UHGV virus genome: UHGV-0217460
Source of the DNA: a virus
Reading direction: 5' to 3' (one strand)
Length of the DNA: 44,522 nucleotides
In this document: positions 1 to 43,187 of the stretch, piece by piece
Layout of the letters: every line of letters starts with the position of its first letter
How positions within the stretch are numbered: the stretch's first letter is position 1
Notes under the pieces: model-generated
What the model saw: the letters and a program-made list of their open reading frames with translations, nothing else
Databases searched by the model: none
Told to the model about the DNA's origin: nothing
Translations under genes and position numbers: made by a program

Positions 1-513
1 ACGGTCATTACCGTAAAAGGAAAAGCTGTAAGAAAAGAGACAGCGAAGAACAACACGAGAAAACGCAAACACAAAATACCGGCTTATATAAAAGGTCTGA
101 TCGACAAGGTTCCTGGCGATGTACTGGTGCCGATGACTGATGTTTCATTGCACCACCGCTGGAAACGCTTACAAAAAAGCTACGGTATAAAAGACCCTAT
201 CACGTTTCACGACCTCAGACATCTTAATGCCTCAGTAATGGCCCTGCTGCAAATACCGGATAAATACGCTCAGGAGCGCGGTGGCTGGAAGTCGGATGCT
301 GTCATGAAAAAGATCTACATGCAGACATTTTCGTCGGAGCGGCAAAAGGTTGATGATAAAATTGACAGCTACTTTGAGAGCATCGTGGGAACCGAAAAAA
401 GCGAAAAAGAATCCATAAAAGAAGTTGTGAACCGGCTGAAAAAAGAAGATCCAGAGGGATGGAAAAAAGCCATTTTAGAAGCTATGCAACACGAAATGCA
501 ACACGCGCAATAA
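1..513 (+). CDS. Tyrosine recombinase/integrase, C-terminal catalytic part (5' end cut by window), belongs to a neighbouring element
   Basis: Open frame from nt 1 with no upstream stop. Motifs HDLRH...GGW...KIYMQ are typical of the phage integrase catalytic domain. It lies left of the putative att fragment. Confidence 0.75.
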   Translation, partial: TVITVKGKAVRKETAKNNTRKRKHKIPAYIKGLIDKVPGDVLVPMTDVSLHHRWKRLQKSYGIKDPITFHDLRHLNASVMALLQIPDKYAQERGGWKSDAVMKKIYMQTFSSERQKVDDKIDSYFESIVGTEKSEKESIKEVVNRLKKEDPEGWKKAILEAMQHEMQHAQ

Positions 514-22351: not shown

Positions 22352-23780
22352 ATTCATCATCAAATAATCCTTTTGCTTGTGTATTTTCTGCTTCTTTTGT
22401 CATTGATACCGCCTCATCTTTCGTCATGCCCTCGAATTTTGTAAAGTATAACCACGCCGGGACCTTTCCTTGCATTACGTACTGCCACCAGCGGCTGCGA
22501 TCTGCTTCGCGGTCATAAAGGATATCACCAAAATCATAGGTCACATCATATGTACCGACAGGTGCCAGGCCATACAGGTCCGCATACACGTTAAGCGCAT
22601 ATAGTGTATCATCCAGGCATGACTCCAGCTGATCACGCACGTCCTTAATGAATTGTACGGTACGCTGCTGATCTGCTTCCACTCCTGTAGCCGTCTGGAT
22701 ACCCGATGACTGGTTAAATACAAAGTACCCATTTGCAAATCCGGCCTTGTATCCTATCTGACTTAACAGATTGTTGATGCCTTTTACTCTGGTATCCGTA
22801 TTAAGCTGAGGGTTGATCTCCTGATAAAACTCTTTTTGATCGTTGCCAAACACATTTTTAACATAGTGCGGAAGTCCCTTCACATCTGCAGGGCCTCTGT
22901 GCTTAATGTTTTTTCCACTTTCATACAGTAATCGATCATCCGCCAGTATGATTTTCTGACTGTCAAAAATCTCACCCGCATTCCGGCTGTATGCTATATC
23001 AAGGTCTTTCAACTCTTCCAGTGCTTCTCTGAAGATTGGAAGTCCCATAGGAGAAGATATGTCTACGTTATTGGCTTGCGGTGTGCGCAAGATGCCAAAC
23101 ATAGGCTTATCAAGTGGCTCTCCTGACGCCTTAAGGATTGGCGGCGTGTCTGCTGCCATGTCCGCCCATTTAGTCTGTGTTAGCGGTATCGGATCTCCTA
23201 TACTGTCCGTTGATTTTGAAACATATGCCCGATTGCTGATATAGTACGGGCGCAACATTGCACCGTCCATCTCTGTCTCAACAAAGCGATGATGTTCTAA
23301 CCTGGTGTACCACTTTTTCCCAGACTGATAAGTATCTTTAAATATAATCTCCCGTACTCCCAGGTTGTCATAGTCTACCAGTAAGACATCCGCAGGAGTA
23401 AAAACGTCTAGGTTTGTGCCGTTTGGCTTTAAAAACACAGTGCCGTAAGCGCATCCGTACTCCACCCAGTCACGAAGCTTAGAATAAATCAAATCTATCT
23501 GCTGCTGCAACCACTCTGCCCGGGCACTGCCTTCCAAATGTATACCGATACCCAAGGTTACCAGGCGGGCCGTCTCTGAACAAAGGGCTTTTGCAAAATT
23601 AATTGTTTTTATGCCTTCTTCATCATCCAGCCACTCCGGATTGCCGTGGTAGACATCTGCGCATTGATTTATGGCCTTTTCCATGTCTGGTGATACAATA
23701 GATTGAACATTAAAAGCCTTTTCTGCCTGCCGCTTAAATATCATATTAATCCACCTTTTTACCGTTGATAATATACCCAT
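22350..23780 (-). CDS. Portal protein (SPP1 gp6-like)
   Basis: 476 aa, in the portal position after the terminase. The start at 23780 overlaps the terminase stop. An internal ATG at 23744 has a better RBS (AAAGGTGG). Confidence 0.75.
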   Translation of the reverse strand: MGILSTVKRWINMIFKRQAEKAFNVQSIVSPDMEKAINQCADVYHGNPEWLDDEEGIKTINFAKALCSETARLVTLGIGIHLEGSARAEWLQQQIDLIYSKLRDWVEYGCAYGTVFLKPNGTNLDVFTPADVLLVDYDNLGVREIIFKDTYQSGKKWYTRLEHHRFVETEMDGAMLRPYYISNRAYVSKSTDSIGDPIPLTQTKWADMAADTPPILKASGEPLDKPMFGILRTPQANNVDISSPMGLPIFREALEELKDLDIAYSRNAGEIFDSQKIILADDRLLYESGKNIKHRGPADVKGLPHYVKNVFGNDQKEFYQEINPQLNTDTRVKGINNLLSQIGYKAGFANGYFVFNQSSGIQTATGVEADQQRTVQFIKDVRDQLESCLDDTLYALNVYADLYGLAPVGTYDVTYDFGDILYDREADRSRWWQYVMQGKVPAWLYFTKFEGMTKDEAVSMTKEAENTQAKGLFDDE

Positions 23781-25408
23781 TATGCACTATTCCCCCGTCT
23801 CTCCCACAGCGATTCCGTAGCGTAACGGGCCGCATCAATGAGATGGTTATTTTTGTCTGGATAGCCGCTTATGATGTTGCCGTCCTTGTCTCGCTCGTAC
23901 TCATACTCTTTAAATTCCTTGCAAGTGTTCGGCGTTCGGTTCGGATCCATGACAAATTTTTTCCCTTGTAACCACTTCATTGAGTACTCAATGCTGCCAG
24001 GTCCTTTATGTGCTGCTCTGGCTGGTAGCCCTGAATCTCTGTAATCCTCAACAGATTTTGGCTCTGCACTATCGCATGTTATAACATAGTCGTCATATTT
24101 GCGCCGTTTGATTTCGGCGGCTGTCCAGCTGTTCTTTTTCTTGTTTTCACAAATCTCGTCTATAAAGTATATGGTTTCACGCGCCGAATCGTAATATATC
24201 CTTACAAAAGCATATTTGTCTGGGTACCATCCCCAGTCAACGCCTTGATATATGCGATCCATAATTTTAATTTCTTCATCTGTGATAGTGCGCTCTTCGA
24301 TAAATTCAAAGACATTGCCACCGTTTCCGTTTGCTTCTCCCATATACTCATTTTCGTATGCACTCGGATTAACCTCTTTTAGATGTTCTGCATCGTTAAG
24401 GAACTCCTCGCCCAGCCAGTCAGCAGGGACATCTTTATATGTACTTCGCATAACAACGGCACTTGCGTTTTTAAACTCTGCCTCTACAGTATATTTATTG
24501 GCCCAGTTGATCTTGCTTCTCGGTGGGTTAAATGACTTAAACTTATACGCCTTATCACCGCCACGTATAGCGGACTGCTGGATGCTTCTGACCTCTTCGG
24601 GTCCGGCGAACTGGTCCAACTCTTCAAACCATACGATACCGATATATCCAAACTTCGGTTTAATCGATTTGATCTTAATCGGGTCATCTGCACCTCGAAA
24701 ATAGATCTTTTGCCCGGTAGGTTTGTATGTGATCTCAAAGGGAGATTGTTTGAATTTAAACTCTGCATCAAGGCCAAGCTTTGAGATAGCCCATTGCAGC
24801 TGCGCATACACAGAATCTTTTATAGTGTTACCGACTTTTCGCAGCACAAGCGCGTGCATATCAGGATGCTTTTTTATCAGCTCCGGGATAATGCATGATA
24901 TACAAGACGATTTCGAAGATCCTCGCCCGCCTGGAAGCACATATTCCGTATGCATGCCGCGCCGGATATCGCGAATCATCGGGTGGAATACATCTGCCAC
25001 CACATCAAGATCAATATGATATTCTTTTGCCGTTCTGGCTTCCTCTTCTGCCTTCTGCTGCGCTTCTTTTTCCTCTTTTACGGCTATAGCTTTCTCCAAA
25101 TCAGACATGGCTTTAAGCTGTTCGGAAAACGCCGGGGCAAATCCAAACGAATCCTTTACTTCCCCCCGTGCGATCATGGCGCGGCGCTTCTGGATATCAG
25201 CAAGAGACATGGTGTCAGTACCGTTGCGCCTATCAAGTTCTGCCTGTTTGTCCGCTATATAGGCCAAAACATCAGCATTCTTCAACAGTCTGCATCCTTC
25301 CTGTTCTGGCTTCTTATATCCAGCTTTTCTCGCCGCATCAGTTGCATTCCCGCCGTTTTCTATGAAGTTTTTCGCGAACGCTTCCCGCTTCGGCGTAAGC
25401 TCACCCAT
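23780..25408 (-). CDS. Terminase: N-terminal small-subunit-like (Terminase_2 HTH) domain fused in frame to large subunit ATPase/nuclease (PBSX XtmB-like)
   Basis: N-terminal ~110 aa TPKREAFAKNFIENGGNATDAARKAGY is TerS-like. It is followed by Walker A VLPGGRGSSKS and the TerL body. There is no stop between them. Confidence 0.7.
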   Translation of the reverse strand: MGELTPKREAFAKNFIENGGNATDAARKAGYKKPEQEGCRLLKNADVLAYIADKQAELDRRNGTDTMSLADIQKRRAMIARGEVKDSFGFAPAFSEQLKAMSDLEKAIAVKEEKEAQQKAEEEARTAKEYHIDLDVVADVFHPMIRDIRRGMHTEYVLPGGRGSSKSSCISCIIPELIKKHPDMHALVLRKVGNTIKDSVYAQLQWAISKLGLDAEFKFKQSPFEITYKPTGQKIYFRGADDPIKIKSIKPKFGYIGIVWFEELDQFAGPEEVRSIQQSAIRGGDKAYKFKSFNPPRSKINWANKYTVEAEFKNASAVVMRSTYKDVPADWLGEEFLNDAEHLKEVNPSAYENEYMGEANGNGGNVFEFIEERTITDEEIKIMDRIYQGVDWGWYPDKYAFVRIYYDSARETIYFIDEICENKKKNSWTAAEIKRRKYDDYVITCDSAEPKSVEDYRDSGLPARAAHKGPGSIEYSMKWLQGKKFVMDPNRTPNTCKEFKEYEYERDKDGNIISGYPDKNNHLIDAARYATESLWERRGNSA

Positions 25409-26060: not shown

Positions 26061-27497
26061 TTATGCAAATCGTAACTGCCCGCCTGTCTCTTCTTTCAAG
26101 CGATCCGAACGGCAGTTTGGCAACCGTTTCGCAATACACAACTCCTTTAAGTTTGCTCTCACCAGTGCCGTTGGTATTGGTGGGCATACTGCATTTCCAC
26201 ATCTCTTCACCTGTTCGGCCCGGGGGTATACCTTCCCTTCGCAGTCACGGTCGATTATGTAGTCTTCCGGAAATCCCTGGCACCCATACAACTCCTTCGG
26301 CTCAAGCATCCGCAATCCAATATCAACAATCTGGTATTCAGTGCCGTATATAGTTACAAGGCCAAATCTATCCTGCGCTGTGATCGTATCAAGCGGCTCT
26401 TTTATATCCTGTCCGGTGCCGGACCCATAATATTTCGTTAAAAACGCTCTCACTTCTCCAAAATGACCGTCTCCCGCCGTGATCGTATGCAGCGGCTCCC
26501 GCATATCCTGTCCCGTGCCGCTTTTATAAAACTTGCTGATAAAGGATGTCACAAGACCGTACCGGTTCGAACTGTCCACAGTCATGATCGGGGCTTCGAT
26601 GCCCTGCCCGCGGACTTCGTCTTTCGTTGTCTCGGAATGGTATTGAATCAGAATCGGCATTTTTATGTCCTCTGATTCGTCCTCTATGACGAATGGATCC
26701 GGATTATCCAGCACGAACTTTTTCACCCCTCTGGCGATTCGATCCATTGTTTTTCTGGCAAGCGGGCGCACTGCCCGGATTCCGTATTTCTTTTTGATTT
26801 CTTCCGATGTATCGAAAATGGACGGGCAAGGAAGCGAAAAGTCAAGCTGCGTATATGCTCCCACATATGGCTTAAGTAATCCGGCTTTCACCTTTGCACT
26901 GTCCGCCGGTCCGTGTGTAGGCTTTGGCCATACGATGGGATTTCCGTCACATCTGGCGATCAGAAAGAAACGTTTCCGCATGGTCGGTGCACCGTAGTCT
27001 GCTGCGATCAGCTCTCGGTACTGAACTTCATAGCCCAAATCCATAAGCTGCTGCACGAACTTCTCAAATGTCTTGCCCTGTTTGCTTTTGATTGGATGAT
27101 GCCCGCGGTTTAATGGTCCCCACGTTTTAAACTCTTCTACGTTTTCTAGCATAATGACTCTTGGCCGAACCAGCCCGGCCCAACGACAGGCAACCCACGC
27201 AAGGCCGCGAATAAACTTGTCCTTCGGCTTACCACCTTTTGCCTTGCTGAAATGCTTACAGTCCGGCGAGAACCATGCTAGGCCAACCGGATGCCCTTTG
27301 CACGCCTTTACCGGATCCACCTGCCAAACATCCTCACAGTAATGCTCTGTGTACGGATGATTTGCTTTATGCATCTTAATTGCTTCTGGATCATGATTGA
27401 TGGCAATGTCGACACAGCAACCGGTTGCGTCCTCTATGCCAGTGCTAGCTCCTCCACCGCCTGCAAAATTATCTACTATCAGCTCACCGTTAATCAT
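26061..27497 (-). CDS. DNA (cytosine-5) methyltransferase, orphan, with duplicated variable-region segment
   Basis: Motif I DNFAGGGG, PC motif SPDCKHFS, motif VI MLENV. Internal ~33-aa repeat (YKSGTGQDMREPLHTITA / YGSGTGQDIKEPLDTITA). Confidence 0.75.
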   Translation of the reverse strand: MINGELIVDNFAGGGGASTGIEDATGCCVDIAINHDPEAIKMHKANHPYTEHYCEDVWQVDPVKACKGHPVGLAWFSPDCKHFSKAKGGKPKDKFIRGLAWVACRWAGLVRPRVIMLENVEEFKTWGPLNRGHHPIKSKQGKTFEKFVQQLMDLGYEVQYRELIAADYGAPTMRKRFFLIARCDGNPIVWPKPTHGPADSAKVKAGLLKPYVGAYTQLDFSLPCPSIFDTSEEIKKKYGIRAVRPLARKTMDRIARGVKKFVLDNPDPFVIEDESEDIKMPILIQYHSETTKDEVRGQGIEAPIMTVDSSNRYGLVTSFISKFYKSGTGQDMREPLHTITAGDGHFGEVRAFLTKYYGSGTGQDIKEPLDTITAQDRFGLVTIYGTEYQIVDIGLRMLEPKELYGCQGFPEDYIIDRDCEGKVYPRAEQVKRCGNAVCPPIPTALVRANLKELCIAKRLPNCRSDRLKEETGGQLRFA

Positions 27498-27571
27498 GGC
27501 ATTCCCCCTGTAATCTCTGTATATTTCTCATTTTTTCAAAGGAGACCGCATATGCTTCACTCCGGCCAGAG

Positions 27572-27800
27572 TCTCGGCTCCTTTCTTAAATCTGTACCAT
27601 TTCCCGGACATTTCTCAGTGTCTCCGGTGTAGACTGCGCATAATACATACTTGTCACTGCCGGGTTTGCATGTCCTAGGATTTCTTGGATGATACCAATA
27701 TCAACCTTTCTGTTTTTTAAATTCATTCCAAGCGTTTTCCTCATTTTATGAGGATATACCGCGCTTTTCACATCCGCTCTCTTCCCAATGTCTTTAATTA
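27572..27800. repeat. ~215-bp direct repeat A (integrase 3' end), ~93% identical to copy B at 30393-30615
   Basis: Aligned by eye, about 15 mismatches over ~215 nt. Copy A is the true 3' end of the int gene at 27586-28623. Confidence 0.75.
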
Positions 27801-28623
27801 TGACTCTTAAACCACATACACTCATTTTATTGTATGGTGCTCTGGACTGCGGAAACATGTATGGGCTTTTATCTGTTCTGCTTTCAAGATATTCGTTGTA
27901 ATAGTGCCTTGCATCATCATCAAGGTATAATGTGCGGTATCTGCCGCCCTTCTCCCCTTTGATGAGTATATCTCCCGTTTCTGTGTTGATCTGGTCGGTT
28001 CTGATCTCTGCAATTTCTCCAACCCGCGCTCCGGTGCTGCGGAATACCTCAATGATCGCACGCTCTCTTTTTGTGCGGCAAGCGTCACGCATCTGGATAA
28101 TCTCCGACCGGCTAAAGTAATCAATTGGCTTTAGCGCAATCTTTTTCGCTTCCGTTGCTTCCACAGGATTTTCATCAATGAGTTTTGATTTTCGCATCCA
28201 TGTGTAAAAAGCCGAAAGGAATCGGCGCTCGTTATTGTATGTGCTGTCCTGTACCTTTTCACTTTTTGTTCCTGGGCGTTTCTCGTACTGTGCCAAATAC
28301 CACTCCACATCAAATGTATCTACACTGTCCAACGACTTCCCCATCATGTCAGATAACCTTTTTACAGATCGGATATATCCGCTGATTGTCGCAGGACTGA
28401 GCCCGCGCTTTTTGATCTTAAAAAGTTCCAGTAAATAGCGGTTTCTTTTTTCTACATCTGTTTTCCACTCCGCTGGAAGAGATGTGATTTCCTGCACATT
28501 TACCTTTGTAAGCTCACTCGATACTACACTATCCAGGATTGCAAGTGTGTCCGAATCAGAAATGTAAATCGACATTGCAACAATGATGTTATCAACGATT
28601 TCTCTTTTGATATTCTGGCCCAT
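27586..28623 (-). CDS. Tyrosine recombinase (XerC/D-like phage integrase family), internal to prophage
   Basis: ATG at 28623 with RBS GAGGGAGG. The C-terminus LGHANPAVTSMYYAQ matches the integrase HxxR...Y region, and the N-terminal SAM-like domain is present. Confidence 0.75.
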   Translation of the reverse strand: MGQNIKREIVDNIIVAMSIYISDSDTLAILDSVVSSELTKVNVQEITSLPAEWKTDVEKRNRYLLELFKIKKRGLSPATISGYIRSVKRLSDMMGKSLDSVDTFDVEWYLAQYEKRPGTKSEKVQDSTYNNERRFLSAFYTWMRKSKLIDENPVEATEAKKIALKPIDYFSRSEIIQMRDACRTKRERAIIEVFRSTGARVGEIAEIRTDQINTETGDILIKGEKGGRYRTLYLDDDARHYYNEYLESRTDKSPYMFPQSRAPYNKMSVCGLRVIIKDIGKRADVKSAVYPHKMRKTLGMNLKNRKVDIGIIQEILGHANPAVTSMYYAQSTPETLRNVREMVQI

Positions 28624-28739
28624 AGTAATCCTCCCTCTTGCAGAATCTGCAAAGGTCTGATACAATGGACCTAAGCAGATCAGGTAAGTGGCGGTAACAT
28701 CTTGGCTGGTGTCCACCACTTATTTTTTTGTGTCATTGT

Positions 28740-29054
28740 CTAGCTCCTTTTATACTTCCAAAAGCCAAAAAGCTTAAGTCTGTGGTAAAATTCTGCTTTT
28801 ACTTTCCTCCGGTATCCATAAAAGTCATCTGCCTTTGCCGGAATATCTCTCCCACGCCGGATCAGCGTATAATATCCGTCTCCAGTCACCAAGCTATCAT
28901 ACGTTTGGATTTCAAGCCCTGGCGCTTTTGATATCGCACAGCCAAATAGTATGATTTTTATCTCAGGATCCGGACTCCTGCAATATAGGTCAAGTTGTGA
29001 TTCGTCCTCTTTTGGCACGTTGTAGTCAGATAACTTAGCTTCTCTTGTCCTCAT
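28740..29054 (-). CDS. Hypothetical protein (cassette cargo)
   Basis: 104-aa ORF between the int and PAPS-reductase-like genes. Confidence 0.4.
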   Translation of the reverse strand: MRTREAKLSDYNVPKEDESQLDLYCRSPDPEIKIILFGCAISKAPGLEIQTYDSLVTGDGYYTLIRRGRDIPAKADDFYGYRRKVKAEFYHRLKLFGFWKYKRS

Positions 29055-29375
29055 CTAATCTCCTTCTTCTTTTTTTGCTGTCAGATATATCGTAGACAAA
29101 TTATAGCCACTCCGTTTGAGGCGTTTTACAATCTCGTCCCGGTCTTTTAACAAACTTCTCTTTGCTCTGTCTTTTACTGGTTTTTCTTCTTTTTTCTTGG
29201 TTACAAGCTTAGAGCATCCCCAGCAGATCCTATAGTAGCCACCTCTAGCTTTCTTTTGCCCGTTACACCAACCTGTCCCGTTGTCGTAGTAGCATGACAT
29301 TCTTTTCCCCTTTCCGCAGCTATCCGGCGCATGGCTGCTATTACGTATTCCGTGCCCGGGTTTGTTTTTTTCCAC
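29055..29375 (-). CDS. Zn-ribbon, basic hypothetical protein (cassette cargo)
   Basis: CYYDNGTGWCNG...CWGCSK Cys pairs and a Lys/Arg-rich tail. Confidence 0.4.
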   Translation of the reverse strand: MEKNKPGHGIRNSSHAPDSCGKGKRMSCYYDNGTGWCNGQKKARGGYYRICWGCSKLVTKKKEEKPVKDRAKRSLLKDRDEIVKRLKRSGYNLSTIYLTAKKEEGD

Positions 29376-29473
29376 ATGGCTGTATCTCCGCTAAATTTCA
29401 GTTTGTGACATCACTGATAATCCCCCGCAGTTTCCTGCATTCCACTGTTGTTATTGTGTTTTCTTCCATCTCT

Positions 29474-30211
29474 CTATCCCTCCATGCTTAAATAACACAT
29501 TATTCCGCAATCTGGAAATATCTCTGTATTCATATTCCCGCGTGTAGGCTCTAGCTCGTCAAGGTATACCGGGTGGCCTTTGCTGTCTTTCAATATTGCA
29601 TAGCCCACCTGCCGCTCCAATCTGGCCCGACTCTCAAAAACCTCTGGGAAGTCCTTGCGAATCCGGTTCCAATAACCCATTCCTCCTTTGACGCACCCGA
29701 GGCAGTTATTATTTGGATACCCCATGTCATACATAACTGGCCGCCTAAACGAAAAGGTCCTTTCAAATAGTCCGTGAACCTCTTCTTTCGATAATCCACG
29801 GTCAATCAACGGAAACTCATGAGCTGCCTGTGGGTTAGCCTCTATGGTTCGCTCTGCCCGCCATTTCTCTTTCAGGTCAAATCCCCAGACATAGGTCAGA
29901 TCATAATCTTTATGAGCTAACTCCCATTCTTTACGAACACGCTTTTTAAGCCAGTTTGTGCAGGGAGCAAAACCATTCATAGCACGAAAACCACCAAAAG
30001 CTCTGACACAATCATCAACACTGCTGTATTCCTCAGATCTCAATATCTGTATCTTCTGTCCGATTGCAGCTTCACAATCCCGTATAAATCGTATGCTGTC
30101 TGGATGCTGATCTTTGATATCTATATAAATCCATTCGTCAACATCTCCTGCCAGGTATCCAGCCATAAAACTGCTTACTCCTGCACTGATCCAACACACT
30201 TTTTTCGTCAT
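29474..30211 (-). CDS. PAPS reductase-like (adenine nucleotide alpha-hydrolase/PP-loop superfamily) protein
   Basis: N-terminal VCWISAGVSS resembles a degenerate SGGxDS PP-loop. C-terminal CLGC. Size ~245 aa is typical of phage PAPS-reductase-family proteins. Confidence 0.45.
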   Translation of the reverse strand: MTKKVCWISAGVSSFMAGYLAGDVDEWIYIDIKDQHPDSIRFIRDCEAAIGQKIQILRSEEYSSVDDCVRAFGGFRAMNGFAPCTNWLKKRVRKEWELAHKDYDLTYVWGFDLKEKWRAERTIEANPQAAHEFPLIDRGLSKEEVHGLFERTFSFRRPVMYDMGYPNNNCLGCVKGGMGYWNRIRKDFPEVFESRARLERQVGYAILKDSKGHPVYLDELEPTRGNMNTEIFPDCGIMCYLSMEG

Positions 30212-30403
30212 AACACCACGCTACAAATGCTGTATCGTGGATCACCATTCGTTTGCTCTTATGCGACCTGTGCCGTTTCCAACACAAGCCTTATAGCCAC
30301 GGTGTTGAATTTTTCGGTACGCCACCGTCATTCACTGCGCACCAACCCGGTTTACCGGGCATTCGTTATTCCTTTCTTTTAGTTATAAATTTCATATTGC
30401 TCC

Positions 30404-30615
30404 TTAAATTTGTACCATTTCCCGAACATCTCTCAGCGTTTTTGGTGTAGACTGCGCATAATACATACTTGTCACTGCCGGGCTTGCATGTCCTAGAATC
30501 TCTTGGATGATACCGATATCAACCTTTCTGTTTTTTAAATTCATTCCAAGCGTTTTCCTCATTTTATGAGGATATACCGCGCTTTTCACATCCGCTCTCT
30601 TTCCAATATCTTAAT
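30404..30615 (-). pseudogene. Orphan integrase 3'-end fragment (repeat copy B)
   Basis: Encodes 61 aa ~90% identical to the C-terminus of the 27586-28623 integrase, with no upstream int body. Confidence 0.65.
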
Positions 30616-30897
30616 TGTTTTATAATAACTTCCAAACCAAACATGTACGGGAGGATTTTTAGCTCCAGGCATTAAAGAACCACTTATCATTTCCATAACC
30701 TGTCCTGAATCATTCCACCCATTTAATTCCATTTCTATTTTATGTTCCATCTTTTCTTCTTCTGAATCATAATGGTACTGTTCTATAAGTTCTGTGTATT
30801 TGCCTACACAGTTATCTCCATCCCATATAAATTTTGTTGTATTATCTTTCATTTTAATTCTTTTCACATAACCATCTCCATTCTGCCTTGAAAGCAA
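30586..30897 (-). CDS. Hypothetical protein whose C-terminus runs into repeat B
   Basis: 103-aa ORF. The last ~10 codons are encoded by repeat B sequence in a non-int frame. Confidence 0.4.
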   Translation of the reverse strand: MLSRQNGDGYVKRIKMKDNTTKFIWDGDNCVGKYTELIEQYHYDSEEEKMEHKIEMELNGWNDSGQVMEMISGSLMPGAKNPPVHVWFGSYYKTIKILERERM

Positions 30898-31005
30898 TTT
30901 TTCAACCTACTCATTTATCGACAACCATAAATTTGTGCCTTCATATTTTCTTATGATTTTCAATAAATCGTTTTCAATTTCAGACAATCTTAATATACAA
31001 ATAGC

Positions 31006-31179
31006 TCAATCAATATCTCCAGAATCGTCATCATTCCAATATATTGAAAAGCTTGCAACATGCATTTTTACTATTTTTTCATATCCTGCAGCTTCTTCTT
31101 CAGAAAGCTCTTTGTTTACAATGGAAGGATGTTCAAGTTGGGTAATTCCGTATTTATTACGGATTTGCTCACGTGTCAT
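31006..31179 (-). CDS. Small hypothetical protein (57 aa)
   Basis: Unlisted ORF MTREQIRNKYGITQLEHPSIVNKELSEEEAAGYEKIVKMHVASFSIYWNDDDSGDID with RBS TAAGGAGC. Its start overlaps the stop of an upstream 33-aa ORF (ATGA). Confidence 0.4.
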   Translation of the reverse strand: MTREQIRNKYGITQLEHPSIVNKELSEEEAAGYEKIVKMHVASFSIYWNDDDSGDID

Positions 31180-31336
31180 AAAAAGCTCCTTATATTAGCG
31201 ATGATACCAAACCATCTTACCATCAGCCCTCTTTTATGCAGTTCCAGTGCCTCATCTATTGCAATTTGTTTTATGATCATTGCCCTTCTCCTTTTTATTC
31301 AACGGACACCATCTCGGTGCGGTTTTAATAGTTAAT

Positions 31337-31597
31337 TTACCTTCCTTGTGTTTCCACAACATTCAATATTTTTTCAACTGCCTTTTCCCAAAAATACCGG
31401 GCAAAATCTTCAACTGTACAAACAACATCTTCGTCTAAATCTATGACGGTCGCATCATCGCATTGGCAACAATGGCAGCCATTTTCTTGCAAAACTTCGT
31501 CGGCTATTTCTCGAACAATTTCTGCTGTTCCGCTAAATTCGCACCCCAACGAGCAAAGCTCTCTCAGTTCTTCCATATCCTTTTTTGATAATTTTGC
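31337..31597 (-). CDS. Small Cys-rich hypothetical protein
   Basis: CHCCQC motif. The conserved TTAAGAATTTGGAGG motif upstream suggests a GTG start at 31597 rather than 31639. Confidence 0.4.
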   Translation of the reverse strand, partial: AKLSKKDMEELRELCSLGCEFSGTAEIVREIADEVLQENGCHCCQCDDATVIDLDEDVVCTVEDFARYFWEKAVEKILNVVETQGR

Positions 31598-31622: not shown

Positions 31623-31847
31623 TTAATTGTCTGCTGCATGTTTTAAGCCTTGTCTATAGCCTAATACAAATTCTACTCCCACTTCGCAGCCACAATTTTT
31701 ACATCTATACTTTCCAAATCTGCTACCATCTACAAAATCATGCCTTTTGCAATTATCTCTTTTTACGCTATTTTCGTTAATTTTTTGCATGATTTCTATC
31801 TGTGCTGGATCCAGTCCTCTACTTTTTGCTTTTTCGATATCAAACAT
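31623..31847 (-). CDS. Small Zn-ribbon hypothetical protein
   Basis: CKRH...CKNCGC motifs. ATG MFDIEK is preceded by a TTAAGATTTGAGGTG motif. Confidence 0.4.
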   Translation of the reverse strand: MFDIEKAKSRGLDPAQIEIMQKINENSVKRDNCKRHDFVDGSRFGKYRCKNCGCEVGVEFVLGYRQGLKHAADN

Positions 31848-31855
31848 TTCACACC

Positions 31856-32152
31856 TCAAATCTTAATACTCTCATAAGTCTTTTCAAAGATATCCGGTTT
31901 GCATGGATACAGTTCACCGTTGACACCCTGAATCACATAATCTCCTATGGAGACGTGGTGAATACCTTCCAGAGTTTCGATAAAAAGCTCACACGGCGGA
32001 GCGCCGCAGCTTTCAGAACTATAATACATGACGCCCTTTTCGTAAGCTTCAACCGCCCAGGCTGGTACATACCAGCTACCATCACGGTCTTTTAAATCTC
32101 CATCATACTGAAATGCTTCAATAACCACAGGTTTCTTTCTATATTTAGCCAT
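31856..32152 (-). CDS. Small phage protein, paralog 1 (GDYVIQG motif)
   Basis: 98 aa, ~85% identical to the 33068-33358 product. Preceded by TTAAGATTTGGAGG. Confidence 0.55.
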   Translation of the reverse strand: MAKYRKKPVVIEAFQYDGDLKDRDGSWYVPAWAVEAYEKGVMYYSSESCGAPPCELFIETLEGIHHVSIGDYVIQGVNGELYPCKPDIFEKTYESIKI

Positions 32153-32246
32153 AATATCTCCTCCAAATCTTAAATAGTGAAAATGAAATTTCTGACCATT
32201 TCGGTGAATTCACCGAGATGGTTCCCATTGGCTCAAATGCCAATTT

Positions 32247-32414
32247 CACTCAATTTTCTCTGCCGCCTCTTCTAGTTCATACATCCAGCTGCTCAACTTT
32301 TCATAGCAATCTTTACAAAGCACTTTATCCTCATCTTTCATTCTAATTTTTTCATATCTATCCCTAAAGTAAACATCCATAACCTTGTTGCATCTTTCAC
32401 ATGCTATTTTCATT
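32247..32414 (-). CDS. Small Zn-ribbon protein (55 aa)
   Basis: Unlisted ORF MKIACERCNKVMDVYFRDRYEKIRMKDEDKVLCKDCYEKLSSWMYELEEAAEKIE. Preceded by TTAAGAATTTGGAGG. Confidence 0.45.
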
Positions 32415-32465
32415 TCTGTACCTCCAAATTCTTAATTTTCTGATTTTATTTTTTCTGCCTTCCGC

Positions 32466-32626
32466 TTAATCCTTGACAGTCTGTCTTGCGTATTTCAGCA
32501 AATCCTCTAAACCCTGCTGATATCCATTGTAAAAGCTTTGCGCCTTTAGAACCTCGGAATTGCATTTAATACACGCATTCTTCTCTAAAAAATCAGCATT
32601 CTTTTCCATTTTTTCGTATTCTTCCT
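32466..32626 (-). CDS. Small Zn-ribbon hypothetical protein
   Basis: CIKCNSE motif. GTG start after the conserved TTTAAAATTTGGAGG motif (the listed ORF to 32765 is probably over-extended). Confidence 0.35.
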
Positions 32627-32667
32627 TGTTCACTGTCCGCCTCCAAATTTTAAAATATCCCATATTT

Positions 32668-33042
32668 TCACCGGCTCCACTCCTTGATTTTTGTCGGGTC
32701 AAACTTTTTTTGACATTCCGGACAATATGGGAATAGCCCGGCGTTGTAATGCCTCTGCATCTCACGAAATACTTTACTCTTTATCATTTTACTTCGTTCT
32801 TGTTCAGCTTCCTCTTTATATGCTTTAATTCTTTCCTGCATCCGCTTTTGCATTTCTACCATTTTTTCCGGGTGCTCCGCTAACTTCACAAGCGCTTCGA
32901 AAGGATCCAGGATAGCTCCGCATTTCTGACATAATACAATCCTGTTTTCTGTATCAATTTCGAAATGTGGTACAACACACTTACAAAGTTTTTCTCTTCC
33001 TCTGTTGATCTTTACAAGATCGAAACGAACAATGTCCTTCAC
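32668..33042 (-). CDS. Double Zn-ribbon hypothetical protein
   Basis: CKC...CQKCG and CPECQ pairs. GTG start preceded by TTAAGATTTGAAGGTG. Confidence 0.45.
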   Translation of the reverse strand: MKDIVRFDLVKINRGREKLCKCVVPHFEIDTENRIVLCQKCGAILDPFEALVKLAEHPEKMVEMQKRMQERIKAYKEEAEQERSKMIKSKVFREMQRHYNAGLFPYCPECQKKFDPTKIKEWSR

Positions 33043-33067
33043 TGTGATTCACCTTCAAATCTTAATT

Positions 33068-33358
33068 TTAAATATTCTCATAGGTTTTTTCAAAGATATC
33101 CGGCTTACACGGATACAGCTCACCGTTGACGCCCTTAATCACATAATCCCATACTGAAACATGGTGAATGCCTTCCAGAGTCTCTATAAAAAGCTCACAC
33201 GGCGGAGTGTCACAGCTTTCGGAAGCATAATGCATGACGCCCTTTTCGTAAGCTTCAACCGCCCAGTTCGGTACATACCAGTTACCATCACAGTCTTTTA
33301 AATCTCCATCGTACTGAAACGCTTCAATAACCACGGGTTTCTTTCTATATTTAGCCAT
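33068..33358 (-). CDS. Small phage protein, paralog 2
   Basis: 96 aa paralog of the 31856-32152 product. The identical upstream motif region is duplicated at nucleotide level. Confidence 0.55.
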   Translation of the reverse strand: MAKYRKKPVVIEAFQYDGDLKDCDGNWYVPNWAVEAYEKGVMHYASESCDTPPCELFIETLEGIHHVSVWDYVIKGVNGELYPCKPDIFEKTYENI

Positions 33359-33375
33359 AATATTTCCTCCAAATC

Positions 33376-33915
33376 TTAATTTCTTATCTCTTGTCTCGAT
33401 AATCCCTCTCCTCCTGTATTTAATCTCTTAAAAAGCTCATATCTCATTTTAAATTCACTTTCTTTAAGAATGATTTCTACTCTACATGGTGTACGCTTAA
33501 TTTGCAATTTATATTCCAATGGTAAAGTATCAATAGTAATATCTTTCAACCCCTTAAGCATACTTCCCTCTACTAATTTCAAGCCATTTTTAGGGTAAGG
33601 ATTTCCCTCTTCATCTTTTAATTCATTAAAAAAAGATAACACCGTCGATACTCTTTGCAGTCCATCAATCAGTTCCCATTTTCCATTTGGATTTGTAGCC
33701 ACAAAAATAGACGGAAAAGGAATCCCTAATAATATTGATTCTATAAAATCTGACTGTCTTTGTTCATCCCATCGAAAAGCTCTTTGATATTCTGGAGAAA
33801 TAATTATTTCTTTATCTCTATACATATTAATTATCTCTCCAAAAGACATATCCATCCTCTCTGATTTTATTTCTTGCCGATATTTTTGAATCTCTGCACT
33901 AATATCCATAATCAT
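33376..33915 (-). CDS. DUF262 (ParB/Srx-fold, GmrSD N-terminal-like) domain protein, short/truncated
   Basis: Segment SPEYQRAFRWDEQRQSDFIESIL...IDGLQRVSTV matches the DUF262 signature (DGQQR). Only 179 aa and no DUF1524/HNH partner domain. Confidence 0.6.
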   Translation of the reverse strand: MIMDISAEIQKYRQEIKSERMDMSFGEIINMYRDKEIIISPEYQRAFRWDEQRQSDFIESILLGIPFPSIFVATNPNGKWELIDGLQRVSTVLSFFNELKDEEGNPYPKNGLKLVEGSMLKGLKDITIDTLPLEYKLQIKRTPCRVEIILKESEFKMRYELFKRLNTGGEGLSRQEIRN

Positions 33916-40299: not shown

Positions 40300-40863
40300 T
40301 TATTCCTCGTCTTTGTTTTTATGCACAACCATTTCAAATTTTTCACCATCTGGGATCATGATTTTTATTAACGGATAACTTTTAAAGTCTCGTGCGGTTG
40401 AGCTGCCCCACATCTCGCCGACCTGAGAGCTGCCACACATCTCGCCGACCTGAGAGCTGTCCAACATCACTCGTACATCGTTAAGCAGCTTTTTGACCTC
40501 GCAACGCTTAAGACGGTAAAAACCAGCTCTCAACTCCTCCAGTTTTTTGTCAACAAGTACATGTGTTCTCCACCAGTCGCATACTGATTCGCGGAACTCT
40601 TTCTCATGAGTTTCTTTATCAAACCAATCAGGAGTTATGTCTTGATCAACAACAAACATCCACTTCTCAGGGTTCTCTGCCGGATCAATCCACCACTCAT
40701 CATCTTTTTTCGGTACCAGCTCAGCCCGAACAAAGGTTTTTGATGCGCCTATGTAATCGTCCTTAATTCCGAGGCTTTCCAGCAAATCGGAATGGCTTTC
40801 ATTATCTTCTGGCGCAATTACGATTTTGTTTTTCAAGATAATTCCGCTCTTAAATCTACACAT
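40300..40863 (-). CDS. Hypothetical protein containing 9-aa tandem repeats
   Basis: RBS GGAGG. Contains a 27-nt tandem repeat that encodes SSQVGEM(C/W)G. Confidence 0.45.
   Translation of the reverse strand: MCRFKSGIILKNKIVIAPEDNESHSDLLESLGIKDDYIGASKTFVRAELVPKKDDEWWIDPAENPEKWMFVVDQDITPDWFDKETHEKEFRESVCDWWRTHVLVDKKLEELRAGFYRLKRCEVKKLLNDVRVMLDSSQVGEMCGSSQVGEMWGSSTARDFKSYPLIKIMIPDGEKFEMVVHKNKDEE
40402..40470. repeat. 27-nt tandem repeat (~2.4 copies) inside CDS
   Basis: GCTGCC(C/A)CACATCTCGCCGACCTGAGA occurs at 40402-40428 and 40429-40455, with a partial third copy. Confidence 0.7.
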
Positions 40864-41112: not shown

Positions 41113-41251
41113 ACTACCCCCGATCTTGATGCGCTTGTAATCAAAGCCAGTGTAAAAACCCCTAAGCATCCAATCTAACGCGTAGCACTGCTACCGTGTT
41201 GCGCCTACTTACGGGCCGGAGAGGCTCCTGCCAGCTCCGGGCATACAGCTA

Positions 41252-41352
41252 TTTACATTTACCTTTACATTTTCATTTACATTAACATTTACCTTTACAT
41301 TAGGTTTTCTGATAACATAACCTATGGTTTTTAAATTGCAAAACCTATGGTT
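41252..41352. repeat. Iteron-like repeat cluster: TTTACAT-type 7-mers (x6-8), 16-nt repeat x2, and AACCTATGGTT x2
   Basis: catttacctttacatt occurs at 41255-41270 and 41285-41300. AACCTATGGTT occurs at 41319-41329 and 41342-41352. Confidence 0.65.
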
Positions 41353-42176: not shown

Positions 42177-42356
42177 TTGCGTATAGTTCGGTTTAGTGAT
42201 ATACTGTGAGTGTCAATCGAAGTAATCAACTTCACCGAGGTATTTCTTTTGCTTAGCTCGTTCCACCGAACTATGTGTATACTATAACACGGTAAACCGA
42301 ACTAGTCAATAGTTTTATCTCAATTTTCTAAACTATTTTTTGAGGTGCGAACTATG
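42177..42356 (+). promoter_or_regulatory. Lysogeny promoter/operator region with 4 copies of a CCGAACTA(T/G) operator-like motif
   Basis: TTGCGT-17-TATACT promoter (42177-42206) with an operator copy in its spacer. Further copies at 42266, 42297 and 42347, the last overlapping the XRE RBS and start. Confidence 0.5.
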
Positions 42357-42737
42357 TATGAAATTTTTAAAATGCTGTGCGAAGAAAAAGGTATAACGAC
42401 ATACCGTTTCTGCAAAGACACCGGGGTAAACTCCTCAACAATAAGCACATGGAAAACAAAAAATTCCGTATGCAGTTCAAGGCTCGCCGGAATAGTTGCC
42501 AAATATTTTGGAGTGTCCGTTGATTATGTACTTACAGGAAAGGAGGAGGTTGCCGTTGCACAGGAAGAGCACATTGATTTAAAAGCGGAATTTAACCGCA
42601 TCAAGAAACTGTTGGAAAGCGGGGAAAACGCACCGTTGTACTTTGACGGGCAACCCGCAGATCAGGAGAGCATCAACTTGCTGCTCGATCAGATCAAGAT
42701 ATCTGTTGCGCTTATGGAACGTATGCGCAAAAAATAG
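42354..42737 (+). CDS. XRE-family HTH transcriptional repressor (phage cI-like)
   Basis: Cro/C1-type HTH ITTYRFCKDTGVNSSTISTWKTK...VAKYFGVSVDYVL. RBS GAGGTG. Paired with ImmA downstream. Confidence 0.8.
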   Translation: MYEIFKMLCEEKGITTYRFCKDTGVNSSTISTWKTKNSVCSSRLAGIVAKYFGVSVDYVLTGKEEVAVAQEEHIDLKAEFNRIKKLLESGENAPLYFDGQPADQESINLLLDQIKISVALMERMRKK

Positions 42738-42749
42738 GAGAAGTGGAAC

Positions 42750-43187
42750 ATGACAGATGCAAAAAGGACAGCCGCAGAGCTATCAAATATGTATCATACA
42801 AATGACCCCATTGATCTCGCCGATCATCTGGGAGTATATACACAGGTTGGCCCTTTGGGTAAGATATACGGATGCTGTTTAACCATAGCGGGTGAACGCT
42901 TCATTTATATAAACAGCGATCTGGATAAGTCTACACAAAAGATGGTTGCGGCCCATGAGCTGGGTCACGCCGTAATGCATCAGGAAGATTACTTCTTTTT
43001 TAACTGGATGCCGGACAGCTTGCACCGGAACCGTGCAGAGATCGAAGCGCATACTTTTGCTGCTGAGTTGCTGGTACCGGACAGCGTTGTGTTGGAGCAT
43101 CCAGGTTTTACTTTAGCGCAGCTATCCGCATTAACCGGATACGCAGAAAATTTCTTAAAATTCAAAAAAGTAGGGGGAGTATTATGA
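42750..43187 (+). CDS. ImmA/IrrE-family zinc metallopeptidase (anti-repressor protease)
   Basis: HEXXH motif AHELGHAVMH, size ~145 aa, directly downstream of the XRE gene. Confidence 0.8.
   Translation: MTDAKRTAAELSNMYHTNDPIDLADHLGVYTQVGPLGKIYGCCLTIAGERFIYINSDLDKSTQKMVAAHELGHAVMHQEDYFFFNWMPDSLHRNRAEIEAHTFAAELLVPDSVVLEHPGFTLAQLSALTGYAENFLKFKKVGGVL

Follow-up and report, generated by a model that had tools for sequence, protein, structure and literature searches.

An orphan integrase tail beside a PP-loop gene in a gut phage is probably a recombination scar of phage mosaicism

Why would a phage carry, close to an intact tyrosine recombinase gene (INT), a second copy of that gene's 3' end? The question arises in the window, by which we mean the whole 44,522-nt stretch of viral DNA analysed here (UHGV virus genome UHGV-0217460). 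A sequence-only reading had taken the roughly 3 kb bounded by the two copies as one unit, either a nested integrase and PAPS-reductase-like cassette or a satellite-like element targeting integrase 3' ends. Comparison with related phages makes it very probable that the second copy, repeat B, is instead a scar of phage mosaicism, left by a transplanted patch that brought an INT tail and a PP-loop gene together; the locus would reflect ordinary phage gene shuffling rather than a new mobile element. The features discussed below between 26061 and 30897 all lie on the minus strand.

The two copies align without gaps over 210 nt at 94% identity (27585-27794 and 30403-30612), and a longer blastn alignment covers 215 nt, including a single 1-nt indel, at 93.5% (27585-27799 against 30403-30616). 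These values agree with the repeats of about 215 bp and 93% identity first described, although the outer ends given for them, 27572 and 30393, overshoot by about 10 nt. Since the 44.5-kb window holds just one other repeat of at least 200 nt, the direct repeat is far beyond chance. In the alignment, homology ends 1-2 nt beyond the INT stop codon. Repeat A (27585-27799), found by repeat search, alignment and blastn alike, consists of the last 70 codons and the stop codon of INT and is, as had been said, the real 3' end of an intact 345-aa gene (27586-28623). Repeat B (30403-30616) is an orphan INT 3' fragment, a pseudogene remnant holding a 61-aa ORF (30404-30589) that matches positions 126-169 of Pfam family PF00589; its kinship to the INT C-terminus had been recognized, but at about 90% identity, whereas 58 of the 61 residues (~95%) are identical. 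The copies differ by 13 mostly synonymous substitutions and share an identical core of 86 nt. With 9 of the 12 differing codons synonymous and 3 non-synonymous, both copies appear to have diverged while they were working alleles, and the SNP pattern of B is that of the INT alleles in the relatives L003 and L004; both observations uphold the earlier view of B as a diverged remnant of a related int gene and not a fresh att duplication. Orphan tails are almost invariant across contigs, and the assembly collection has the exact 46-aa orphan product in 212 of its index blocks. Such a tail is absent from all 160 IMG/VR relatives, an orphan-specific 38-mer had no match in a one-genome-per-species set of bacterial genomes, and no near-identical DNA was found among GenBank phages. 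A search of 27000-31500 against Rfam gave no match, and a promoter and terminator scan of 27400-31000 gave counts not above those of shuffled sequences and so no sign of a promoter provided by the orphan.

The intact copy belongs to a gene with a settled place in this phage lineage. INT encodes a Xer-like tyrosine recombinase (PF00589, E 1.4e-29; N-terminal SAM-like PF13495, E 2.2e-8; PHROG 1/216) in whose translation the catalytic R, K, HxxR, H and Y motifs can be read (RSTGARVGE, HKMRKT, LGHAN and SMYYAQ), and it is, as first noted, the second recombinase of the phage besides the lysogeny integrase at 1-513. Its scores fall below the NCBIfam cut-offs for XerA (164.8 against 220), XerD (114 against 330) and XerC (106 against 335), and it would best be called Xer-like only, outside those three equivalogs. 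The gene is also called as 345 aa in L161, a related scaffold. IMG/VR holds 122 INT relatives; in the bacterial set, relatives at 33-64% identity occur only in genomes of Lachnospiraceae and related Clostridia, which points to the host range. Upstream of INT lie its conserved partner o104 (28740-29054; 104 aa, tblastn 79-100% in L001-L012), for which Pfam, PHROG and PDB sequence searches returned no match, and o106 (29055-29375), a small Cys-rich ORF with tblastn matches in L001-L005 and residues 22-105 kept at 33-62% in L014-L016, L019 and L020; over this region gene callers prefer an overlapping 58-aa ORF (29201-29377; gene calls in L161). The order o106-o104-INT is found upstream of o85-terL in L001-L005, and o104-INT there in L006-L012, a pattern that identifies a conserved resident syntenic module with o106 as its first gene. 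In L001, L002 and L004 the module stands just upstream of the packaging genes with neither an orphan nor a PAPS-like gene, an arrangement that shows the 3-kb block not to be one unit and that the sequence-only reading had itself named as refuting it. What lies downstream of INT varies among relatives between a PAPS-like gene, a C5 methyltransferase and nothing; in the window this variable cargo is the C5 cytosine methyltransferase MT478 (26061-27497; 478 aa, PF00145), which also adjoins INT in L001 and L002. The proteins of o103, o104, o106 and the PAPS-like gene had no Pfam or NCBIfam match, and a PDB sequence search with the DUF262 protein was empty.

The other gene of interest between the repeats encodes a 245-aa PAPS-reductase-like protein (29474-30211) with 3,746 homologues. 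It matches PHROG 424, 'PAPS reductase' (E 2.5e-31), and in a PDB search its family profile matches, over 238 of 248 profile positions (E 8.2e-55), the homologue PptA, a solved phage protein from Vibrio phage vB_VhaP_VH-5 (PDB 21fy). The top Foldseek matches of its predicted model are TtuA, NAD synthetase, LarE and PAPS reductase, and PP-loop enzymes fill ranks 1-22 entirely, at probabilities of 0.77-1.00, with weak E-values (best 5e-4) and a model of moderate confidence (pLDDT 66.9). PHROG 424, PptA and the predicted fold together indicate a PP-loop-fold enzyme (adenine-nucleotide alpha-hydrolase fold), in line with what had been proposed from the letters, and the SAGVSS motif on which that proposal drew is present. 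S9, A10, G11, S13 and S14 of this P-loop variant are invariant in 18 homologues, and PptA reads SCGAPS at the same position. The protein is thus like the PP-loop ATP pyrophosphatases (PAPS reductase/CysH, DndC, TtuA, LarE, NAD synthetase, PptA) in PHROG, profile and predicted fold, but differs in having S-A-G-x-S-S in place of the canonical SGGxDS and in lacking a match to Pfam PAPS_reduct (PF01507); no Pfam family matched at E <= 0.01. A literature search on 'PptA', PDB 21fy, Vibrio phage VH-5 and phage PAPS-reductase function found no relevant paper.

Repeat B and this gene belong to one stretch of 1,225 nt (29392-30616), the patch, which combines the final 210 nt of INT with a spacer, the PP-loop gene and the opening 23 codons of the gene that follows, geneX; in the window it lies upstream of the resident o106-o104-INT. 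The INT fragment and its neighbours are colinear with an intact arrangement in L003, L004 and L005, and in relatives an intact INT is followed immediately by a PAPS-reductase-like gene. Window 30616..29403 runs colinear with L003 2084-3301 (INT 3' end, PAPS-like gene, geneX start) and window 29404..27585 with L003 483-2298, and window 30616..30209 is 96.3% identical to L004 8825-9233. In L003/L004-type phages the spacer (30212-30402 in the window, ~190 nt) comes after the stop codon of INT. In L007, L008, L010 and L011 the INT 3' end runs straight into geneX, so that spacer and PAPS-like gene together are an indel right after INT. A progenitor with a full-length B-type INT followed by the exact PAPS allele was not found; the closest are L004 (96%) and L003 (88%).

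Both ends of the patch are joints between sequences that are separate in relatives. Junction 1 (30608-30616, AATTAAGAT) joins the natural end of o103 to an INT-internal site, AATTAAAGAT. The 103-aa ORF o103 (30586-30897) is a complete early gene, 99.5% identical to L001 4317-4711 up to the joint, where its stop codon was replaced and it gains six residues (LERERM) read out of frame from INT sequence; this is the ORF that had been seen to end inside repeat B, with a junction estimated at about 30615. Junction 2 (29399-29404) lies at AAACTG, a microhomology that codons 21-23 of geneX share with the o106 5' leader, AAACTGAAATTTAGCGGAG. Intact geneX, a 52-aa gene compared here in L007 and L003, follows INT or PAPS in relatives, and its stub in the window (29398-29469, the first 23 codons) meets a stop codon created at the joint; the loci show three different right flanks after this stub end. 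Each joint has microhomology with both parental sequences, and the genes are cut to 70 of 345 codons (INT) and 23 of 52 (geneX). The joints at the patch ends mimic the stop-codon/ribosome-binding-site linkers that recur in this phage: AATTAAGAT is present 5 times against about 1 expected, on the coding strand in every case, TTAAGATTTGGAGG is present 4 times at <=2 mismatches against 0.5 expected, and 6 gene junctions at 31626-33379 bear the looser form TTAAGA(T/A)-TTGGAGG. In L012, INT is broken independently at a further site that resembles a linker, between AATTTAAAA and TTTAGGAG.

Joints of this kind raise the suspicion of an assembly artefact, a chimera of co-occurring INT-PAPS and INT-MT478 strains, and the 86-nt identical stretch does exceed some assembly k-mers. 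The two novel joints, however, share 6-9 nt only, too short for k-mer chimeras; junction-specific proteins are indexed in 65 blocks of the assembly collection (the 103-aa protein) and in 212, spanning many samples and several assemblers; and L161, a 44.8-kb ENA scaffold 100% identical to the window over 11.4 kb, reproduces the full arrangement, as does L164. An artefact is, on this evidence, hardly credible.

The same patch recurs elsewhere. With the same ends and at 100% identity it is found in at least 12 metagenome loci with at least four different flanks; the patch loci have at least three left flanks, at least three right flanks and several different terminases. It is 100% identical between other flanks in L176, L179-L182, L203 and L205-L209, 99.9% in L184 and 99.8% in L210, and at o103-flanked loci (L165, L168 and L211 at 100%; L162, L163, L177 and L204 at 99.9%) the alignment extends from a point further left to 29395. 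Phages L176 and L179-L184 carry the patch and have no INT. Identical patch ends in several contexts are also compatible with a dedicated cassette mechanism. Across the assembly collection, the exact patch proteins are indexed in 182-212 blocks, and at each of the 10 places shown for the exact PAPS allele the orphan comes before it. The orphan had been read as the leftover of a resident int gene; its presence with the PAPS-like gene in one patch, 100% identical in other backbones and in INT-less phages too, points to the two having arrived together. These comparisons indicate that one recombination product spread at 100% identity over at least four Lachnospiraceae phage backbones and many human-gut samples. 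Such spread of one identical patch points to selection on the PP-loop gene, which is likely the selected cargo.

From these arrangements we infer an order of events and the kind of recombination involved. Some related Lachnospiraceae phages have the order o106-o104-INT-spacer-PAPS-like-geneX, with the PP-loop gene a moron right after the INT stop codon. Two illegitimate joints in one such genome would have excised the 1,225-nt piece. At the left joint, the stop/RBS linker that ends the early gene (AATTAAGAT) may have fused to its look-alike inside INT, AATTAAAGATATTGG, leaving the last 210 nt of INT; at the right joint, AAACTG in geneX codons 21-23 may have fused to the leader, AAACTGAAATTTA..GGAG, of a gene lying downstream. 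The patch could then have passed between co-infecting phages by recombination at short linker homologies, and in the window would have landed between o103 and the resident o106-o104-INT. The INT tail is now present twice, and recombination between the two tails (215 nt of homology, 86-nt identical core) would delete the PAPS-like gene, o106, o104 and INT.

Contigs of the last kind exist. All comparators are metagenome assemblies, and these deletion contigs are short and of low coverage: in L167, L171 and L172 exactly the inter-repeat 2.8 kb is missing, leaving o103, a chimeric B/A tail and MT478, which indicates that the block can be deleted through the repeats. The crossover can be placed only within the 86-nt stretch identical in A and B, so that sequence does not separate homologous from site-specific recombination. 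In L174 an A-type orphan tail precedes a truncated ORF, and the left flank is of the L176 type; an L001-type INT allele was rejected as the source of the A-type orphan, its SNP pattern being different. Concerning direction, deletion-type contigs could also be 'empty sites' entered by a recombining 2.8-kb circle. The same scar would then have formed in reverse: o103-orphan tail-MT478 would be ancestral, and a 2.8-kb circle, released from an L003-like phage via AAACTG, would have recombined homologously into the orphan. The deletion-type contigs themselves accord with this, as do two AAACTG sites that flank exactly the 2.8 kb in L003-type order, but B-type orphans are far wider, in 212 blocks against 5 A-type contigs, and in more contexts; phages that lack INT have the same geneX stub end; and the flanks of the A-type orphan are 99.9% identical to the window, as if derived from it. 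We regard the reverse direction as unlikely.

More improbable still is that the inter-repeat block, from the PAPS-like gene through o106 and o104 to INT, represents an integrative cassette or a satellite whose recombinase has its site in its own 3' end, with the repeats as attL and attR. A complete recombinase lies inside the block, the block-less contigs with a single chimeric repeat resemble empty sites, and a short palindrome, CCTCATAAAATGAGG, falls within the 86-nt identical core. Homologous recombination between the repeats, however, would also yield single-repeat variants, and the palindrome encodes the conserved YPHKMRK motif; to our knowledge its 6-bp arms and 3-bp spacer are unlike tyrosine-recombinase cores. 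Against the cassette also stand o106-o104-INT at the same position in relatives that have neither orphan nor PAPS-like gene, and the PAPS patch 100% identical in phages that have no INT. On its left, repeat B stops at an illegitimate joint to an unrelated gene; on the right, both repeats end simply where INT has its stop codon, and the 13 mostly synonymous substitutions (93.5% identity) set the repeats apart. There is no sign of site-specific targeting, and the suggested satellite or element directed at integrase 3' ends finds no backing here. A related idea, that INT has a recombination site in its own 3' coding end and that the orphan tail is a portable docking site for the capture and loss of INT-bearing blocks, keeps a place because the crossover of the deletion variants falls in the 86-nt stretch identical in both repeats, and we hold it to be very doubtful; if true, it would mean a self-targeting cassette-exchange system in gut phages.

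Likeness to known systems can be judged in the same terms. Hendrix, Juhala and Clark reportedly described phage mosaicism arising by illegitimate or short-homology recombination at gene boundaries, with 'linker' sequences and morons in lambdoid phages. The window is like this in its joints at gene ends, microhomology, truncated gene stubs, a near-identical module common to otherwise different phages and a moron directly after a conserved gene; it is unlike it in that the linker is a recurrent stop-codon and Shine-Dalgarno motif, TTAAGA(T/A)TTGGAGG, and in that a coding-sequence look-alike was used, so that an integrase tail tags every copy of the module. Integrative elements flanked by att sites that carry a copy of their target gene's 3' end, such as islands and prophages that insert into tRNA genes or the 3' ends of other genes, also have a direct repeat of a gene 3' end, one intact and one orphan, a recombinase inside the block, and block-less variants, but here the orphan is upstream of the intact gene instead of downstream, an illegitimate joint and a stop codon bound the repeats, and the block is no unit in other genomes. 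SSV1-type integrases have attP inside the int gene, and integration splits int; in the window, too, recombination that involved the coding sequence of int has set a fragment of the gene apart, but a complete int and an extra tail are present and not complementary N and C halves. Integrons likewise set a tyrosine recombinase beside variable cargo in discrete cassettes with fixed ends; in the window, by contrast, the cargo follows the recombinase and shares its orientation, no attC-like structured sites were noticed, the patch occurs in phages that have no recombinase, and its ends are stop/RBS look-alikes. INT scores 53 with the NCBIfam integron-integrase model against a cut-off of 265.

For those who annotate phage genomes, an int fragment and a direct repeat beside a recombinase are not by themselves evidence for an integrative element. 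Read as a scar of mosaicism, the locus would be a worked example, nucleotide by nucleotide, of how a moron, here a 'PptA-like' PP-loop gene, may be moved between temperate phages at short stop/RBS linkers, with a dragged-along integrase tail that marks every descendant copy of the patch. The twofold INT tail would also give this phage a built-in 2.8-kb deletion polymorphism that removes INT together with the PP-loop gene.

All genes in the studied part of the window lie on the minus strand. In that order they are o103, a small ORF (30897-30586); an orphan integrase tail (30616-30403); a spacer of ~190 nt; the PAPS-like gene for a 245-aa PP-loop protein (30211-29474); a 23-codon stub of geneX, a 52-aa gene in relatives (29469-29398); the small ORFs o106 (29375-29055) and o104 (29054-28740); INT, the intact Xer-like recombinase gene (28623-27586); directly after it MT478, a C5 methyltransferase gene (27497-26061); and then o90, o85, large terminase, and portal. 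The gene model at 29055-29377 is uncertain: a 106-aa GTG ORF overlaps, in a different frame, a 58-aa ATG ORF with a good GGAG site that gene callers choose, and conservation in distant relatives favors the 106-aa frame from about residue 22. In the large terminase (542 aa, 23780-25408), a small-subunit-type domain (PF03592, Terminase_2) at the N-terminus is fused to Terminase_3, judging by precomputed Pfam matches on the identical L161 protein. As a whole, the window has the appearance of a circularly permuted genome from a temperate phage, with a lysogeny integrase fragment (127-513, plus strand) adjoining an endolysin and a repressor/ImmA pair at 42345-43187; the hosts are Lachnospiraceae, for example, Enterocloster and Hungatella.

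The direct repeat proposed from the sequence alone is real: 210 nt at 94% identity, ungapped (27585-27794 and 30403-30612); a longer alignment with a single 1-nt indel covers 215 nt at 93.5%. The homology stops at 30612-30616 at one edge and 1-2 nt past the INT stop codon at the opposite edge. The tyrosine recombinase to which copy A belongs is intact (PF00589 and a SAM-like N-domain) and Xer-like yet scores far under the XerA/C/D equivalog cut-offs; copy B, the orphan, matches the last part of the catalytic domain only. Nine of the 12 homologous codons that differ between the copies do so synonymously, so the divergence arose while both sat in working genes, which supports the sequence-only reading in its case against a fresh att duplication.

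Relatives point to the source of the orphan. IMG/VR holds 122 confirmed relatives of INT and 181 of the PAPS-like gene, and the closest carry the o106-o104-INT module at the same place, upstream of o85-terL-portal, with varying cargo after INT: MT478 (L001, L002), the PAPS-like gene (L003, L005), or a short spacer only (L004). No separate orphan INT tail turned up among the 160 IMG/VR loci. Colinearity at the DNA level pairs window 30616..29403 with L003 2084-3301 (INT 3' end, spacer, PAPS-like gene, and start of the next gene) and window 29404..27585 with L003 483-2298 (o106-o104-INT). In L007, L008, L010, and L011 the INT tail runs straight into the sequence that follows the PAPS-like gene in the window, so the spacer and PAPS-like gene form a moron-type indel right after INT. 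Together, the colinearity and the indel pattern identify the orphan, already suspected to be a remnant of a related int, as part of an INT-PAPS phage piece set upstream of the resident INT module.

This piece, window 30616..29392, is a patch of 1,225 nt that recurs at 100% identity at no fewer than 12 loci with differing flanks, on metagenome assembly contigs. It lies between o103 and o106-o104-INT-MT478 in the window, L161 (100% identical to the window across 11.4 kb), and L164; between o103 and 57-63-101-INT'-REP-terS-terL in L162, L163, and L165, where INT' is ~65% identical in nucleotides along part of its length; between other early genes and 46-61-125-144, with other terminases and no full INT, in L176, L179-L184, and L203-L209; and in a further variant in L210. 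The orphan precedes the exact PAPS allele in 10 of the 10 places shown, and in L178 and L183 an orphan tail without the PAPS-like gene stands between o90 and an intact geneX. The assembly collection has 65 index blocks with the junction-specific o103 protein, 212 with the 46-aa orphan product, and 182 with the exact PAPS allele. A nested integrative cassette or satellite, as first proposed, does not fit a patch shared identically with phages that have no full INT, nor an o106-o104-INT module that is resident in relatives; what is seen is a scar of mosaic recombination joined to a moron that is widely shared. INT is also independently broken in L012 (8900-9000) at another linker-like site, between AATTTAAAA and TTTAGGAG, where fusion to a downstream ORF replaces the last 29 codons and removes the catalytic His and Tyr, and in L038 (359-1394) its match falls in two pieces overlapping at residue 258, consistent with a frameshift. 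This damage, and the absence of INT from L176-type phages, suggests that INT is dispensable.

Both joints can be read to the nucleotide. At the left, the natural o103 end in L001 is ACAATTAAGAT followed by TTAG, the internal INT sequence is TAATTAAAGAT followed by ATTGGAAAG, and the window joins ACAATTAAGAT to ATTGGAAAG, which removes the stop codon of o103 and extends its product by the residues LERERM. At the right, geneX, which encodes 52 aa in L007 and L003, breaks off at AAACTG after codon 23 and is fused to the o106 leader AAACTGAAATTTAGCGGAG, creating a stop codon. Microhomology at both joints is 6-9 nt, too short for an assembly chimera, which we rejected as their origin. Three upstream contexts share one starting nucleotide for the orphan, whose first bases, AATTAAGATATTGGAAAG, resemble the recurring stop-codon/Shine-Dalgarno linker found in these phages, TTAAGA(T/A)TTGGAGG. 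This linker ends o90 as well as a series of six consecutive small early genes (31626-33379). The motif AATTAAGAT occurs 5 times against ~1 expected, always on the coding strand, and the 14-mer 4 times (at most 2 mismatches) against 0.5 expected. The natural sequence of the L176-type left flank in L001 is AAATTAAGAGTTGGAGG, and the right end of the patch, AAACTGAAAT(TTA), is the common leader start of o106 and the 46-aa gene, intact in L178. Short-homology recombination at such linkers would create and move modules, a process that is classical phage mosaicism.

Other repeats occur in the window. A second long direct repeat (31848-32147 and 33054-33353; 300 nt, 87%) comprises paralogous 98-aa and 96-aa genes of PHROG 419 (function unknown), 1.2 kb apart and each followed by a TTAAGATTTGGAGG-type linker; in L002 only one copy is present, and the 96-aa paralogue is the one it matches, at 99% identity. 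A perfect 24-nt direct repeat, CTATGCAACACGAAATGCAACACG, has one copy (482-505) in the 3'-terminal part of the lysogeny integrase gene (127-513, plus strand) and another (687-710) 205 nt downstream; the two are possible attP arm or core sites and are unrelated to the INT studied here, contrary to the suggestion that they repeat the same theme. Overlapping repeats of 12-nt period (ATTTACATTTAC...) and a 27-nt tandem duplication near the repressor end (41251-41304 and 40400-40453) could be operator or iteron-like elements.

The PAPS-like protein matches PHROG 424 (E 2.5e-31) and no Pfam or NCBIfam model. Its homologues number 3,746; in Clostridium sp. AM43-3BH, NCBI annotates some as PAPS reductase. 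An 18-member profile matches one solved chain, 21fy_C 'PptA' (E 8.2e-55), from a recent PDB entry that is the family's sole solved homologue; our literature search found no paper describing PptA or 21fy. At 100% identity, the chain corresponds to a hypothetical protein from the Autographiviridae Vibrio phage vB_VhaP_VH-5 (18758-19510; L212 4977-5729), encoded just after the RNA polymerase gene. A moderate AlphaFold model (pLDDT 66.9) has PP-loop enzymes at all of Foldseek ranks 1-22 (TtuA, NAD synthetase, LarE, NcsA, and PAPS reductase), which with the PptA match supports the proposed PP-loop fold as a prediction. SAGVSS, first read as degenerate, is a P-loop variant conserved across the family rather than a decayed motif, judging from the homologue alignment and the PptA match. 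In many unrelated phages (IMG/VR loci L091, L093, L101, L107, L123, L150, and others) the PAPS-like gene lies at most ~300 nt upstream of an MT478-like C5 methyltransferase. DNA hypermodification offers a precedent in the C5-methyltransferase homologue CmoX and the asparagine-synthetase-like ATP-dependent amide ligase CmoY (PMC12783734), a pairing that may be a lead to the function of the PP-loop gene. MT478 itself contains an internal duplication (26376-26453 and 26475-26552; 78 nt, 72%) yielding two Y(G/K)SGTGQD(I/M)(K/R)EPL(D/H)TITA segments, which by analogy with multispecific phage methyltransferases could be tandem target-recognition modules.

The repeats themselves appear to recombine. 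L167, L171, and L172, from different samples (L172 is named k127, and L167 is a SPAdes-style NODE contig), each have o103, a single INT tail, and MT478, with exactly the 2,818 bp between the repeats missing. The tail in these contigs is B-type at its first two variable positions and A-type at every subsequent one, which places the crossover within the 86-nt identical core, 27698-27783; the allele pattern of L001 differs, so these variants derive from the window type. L174 joins an L176-type left flank to an A-type tail, followed by a truncated ORF. In these sequences the orphan serves as portable homology through which the PAPS-o106-o104-INT segment is deleted and new joints are made, by a crossover that may be homologous or INT-mediated.
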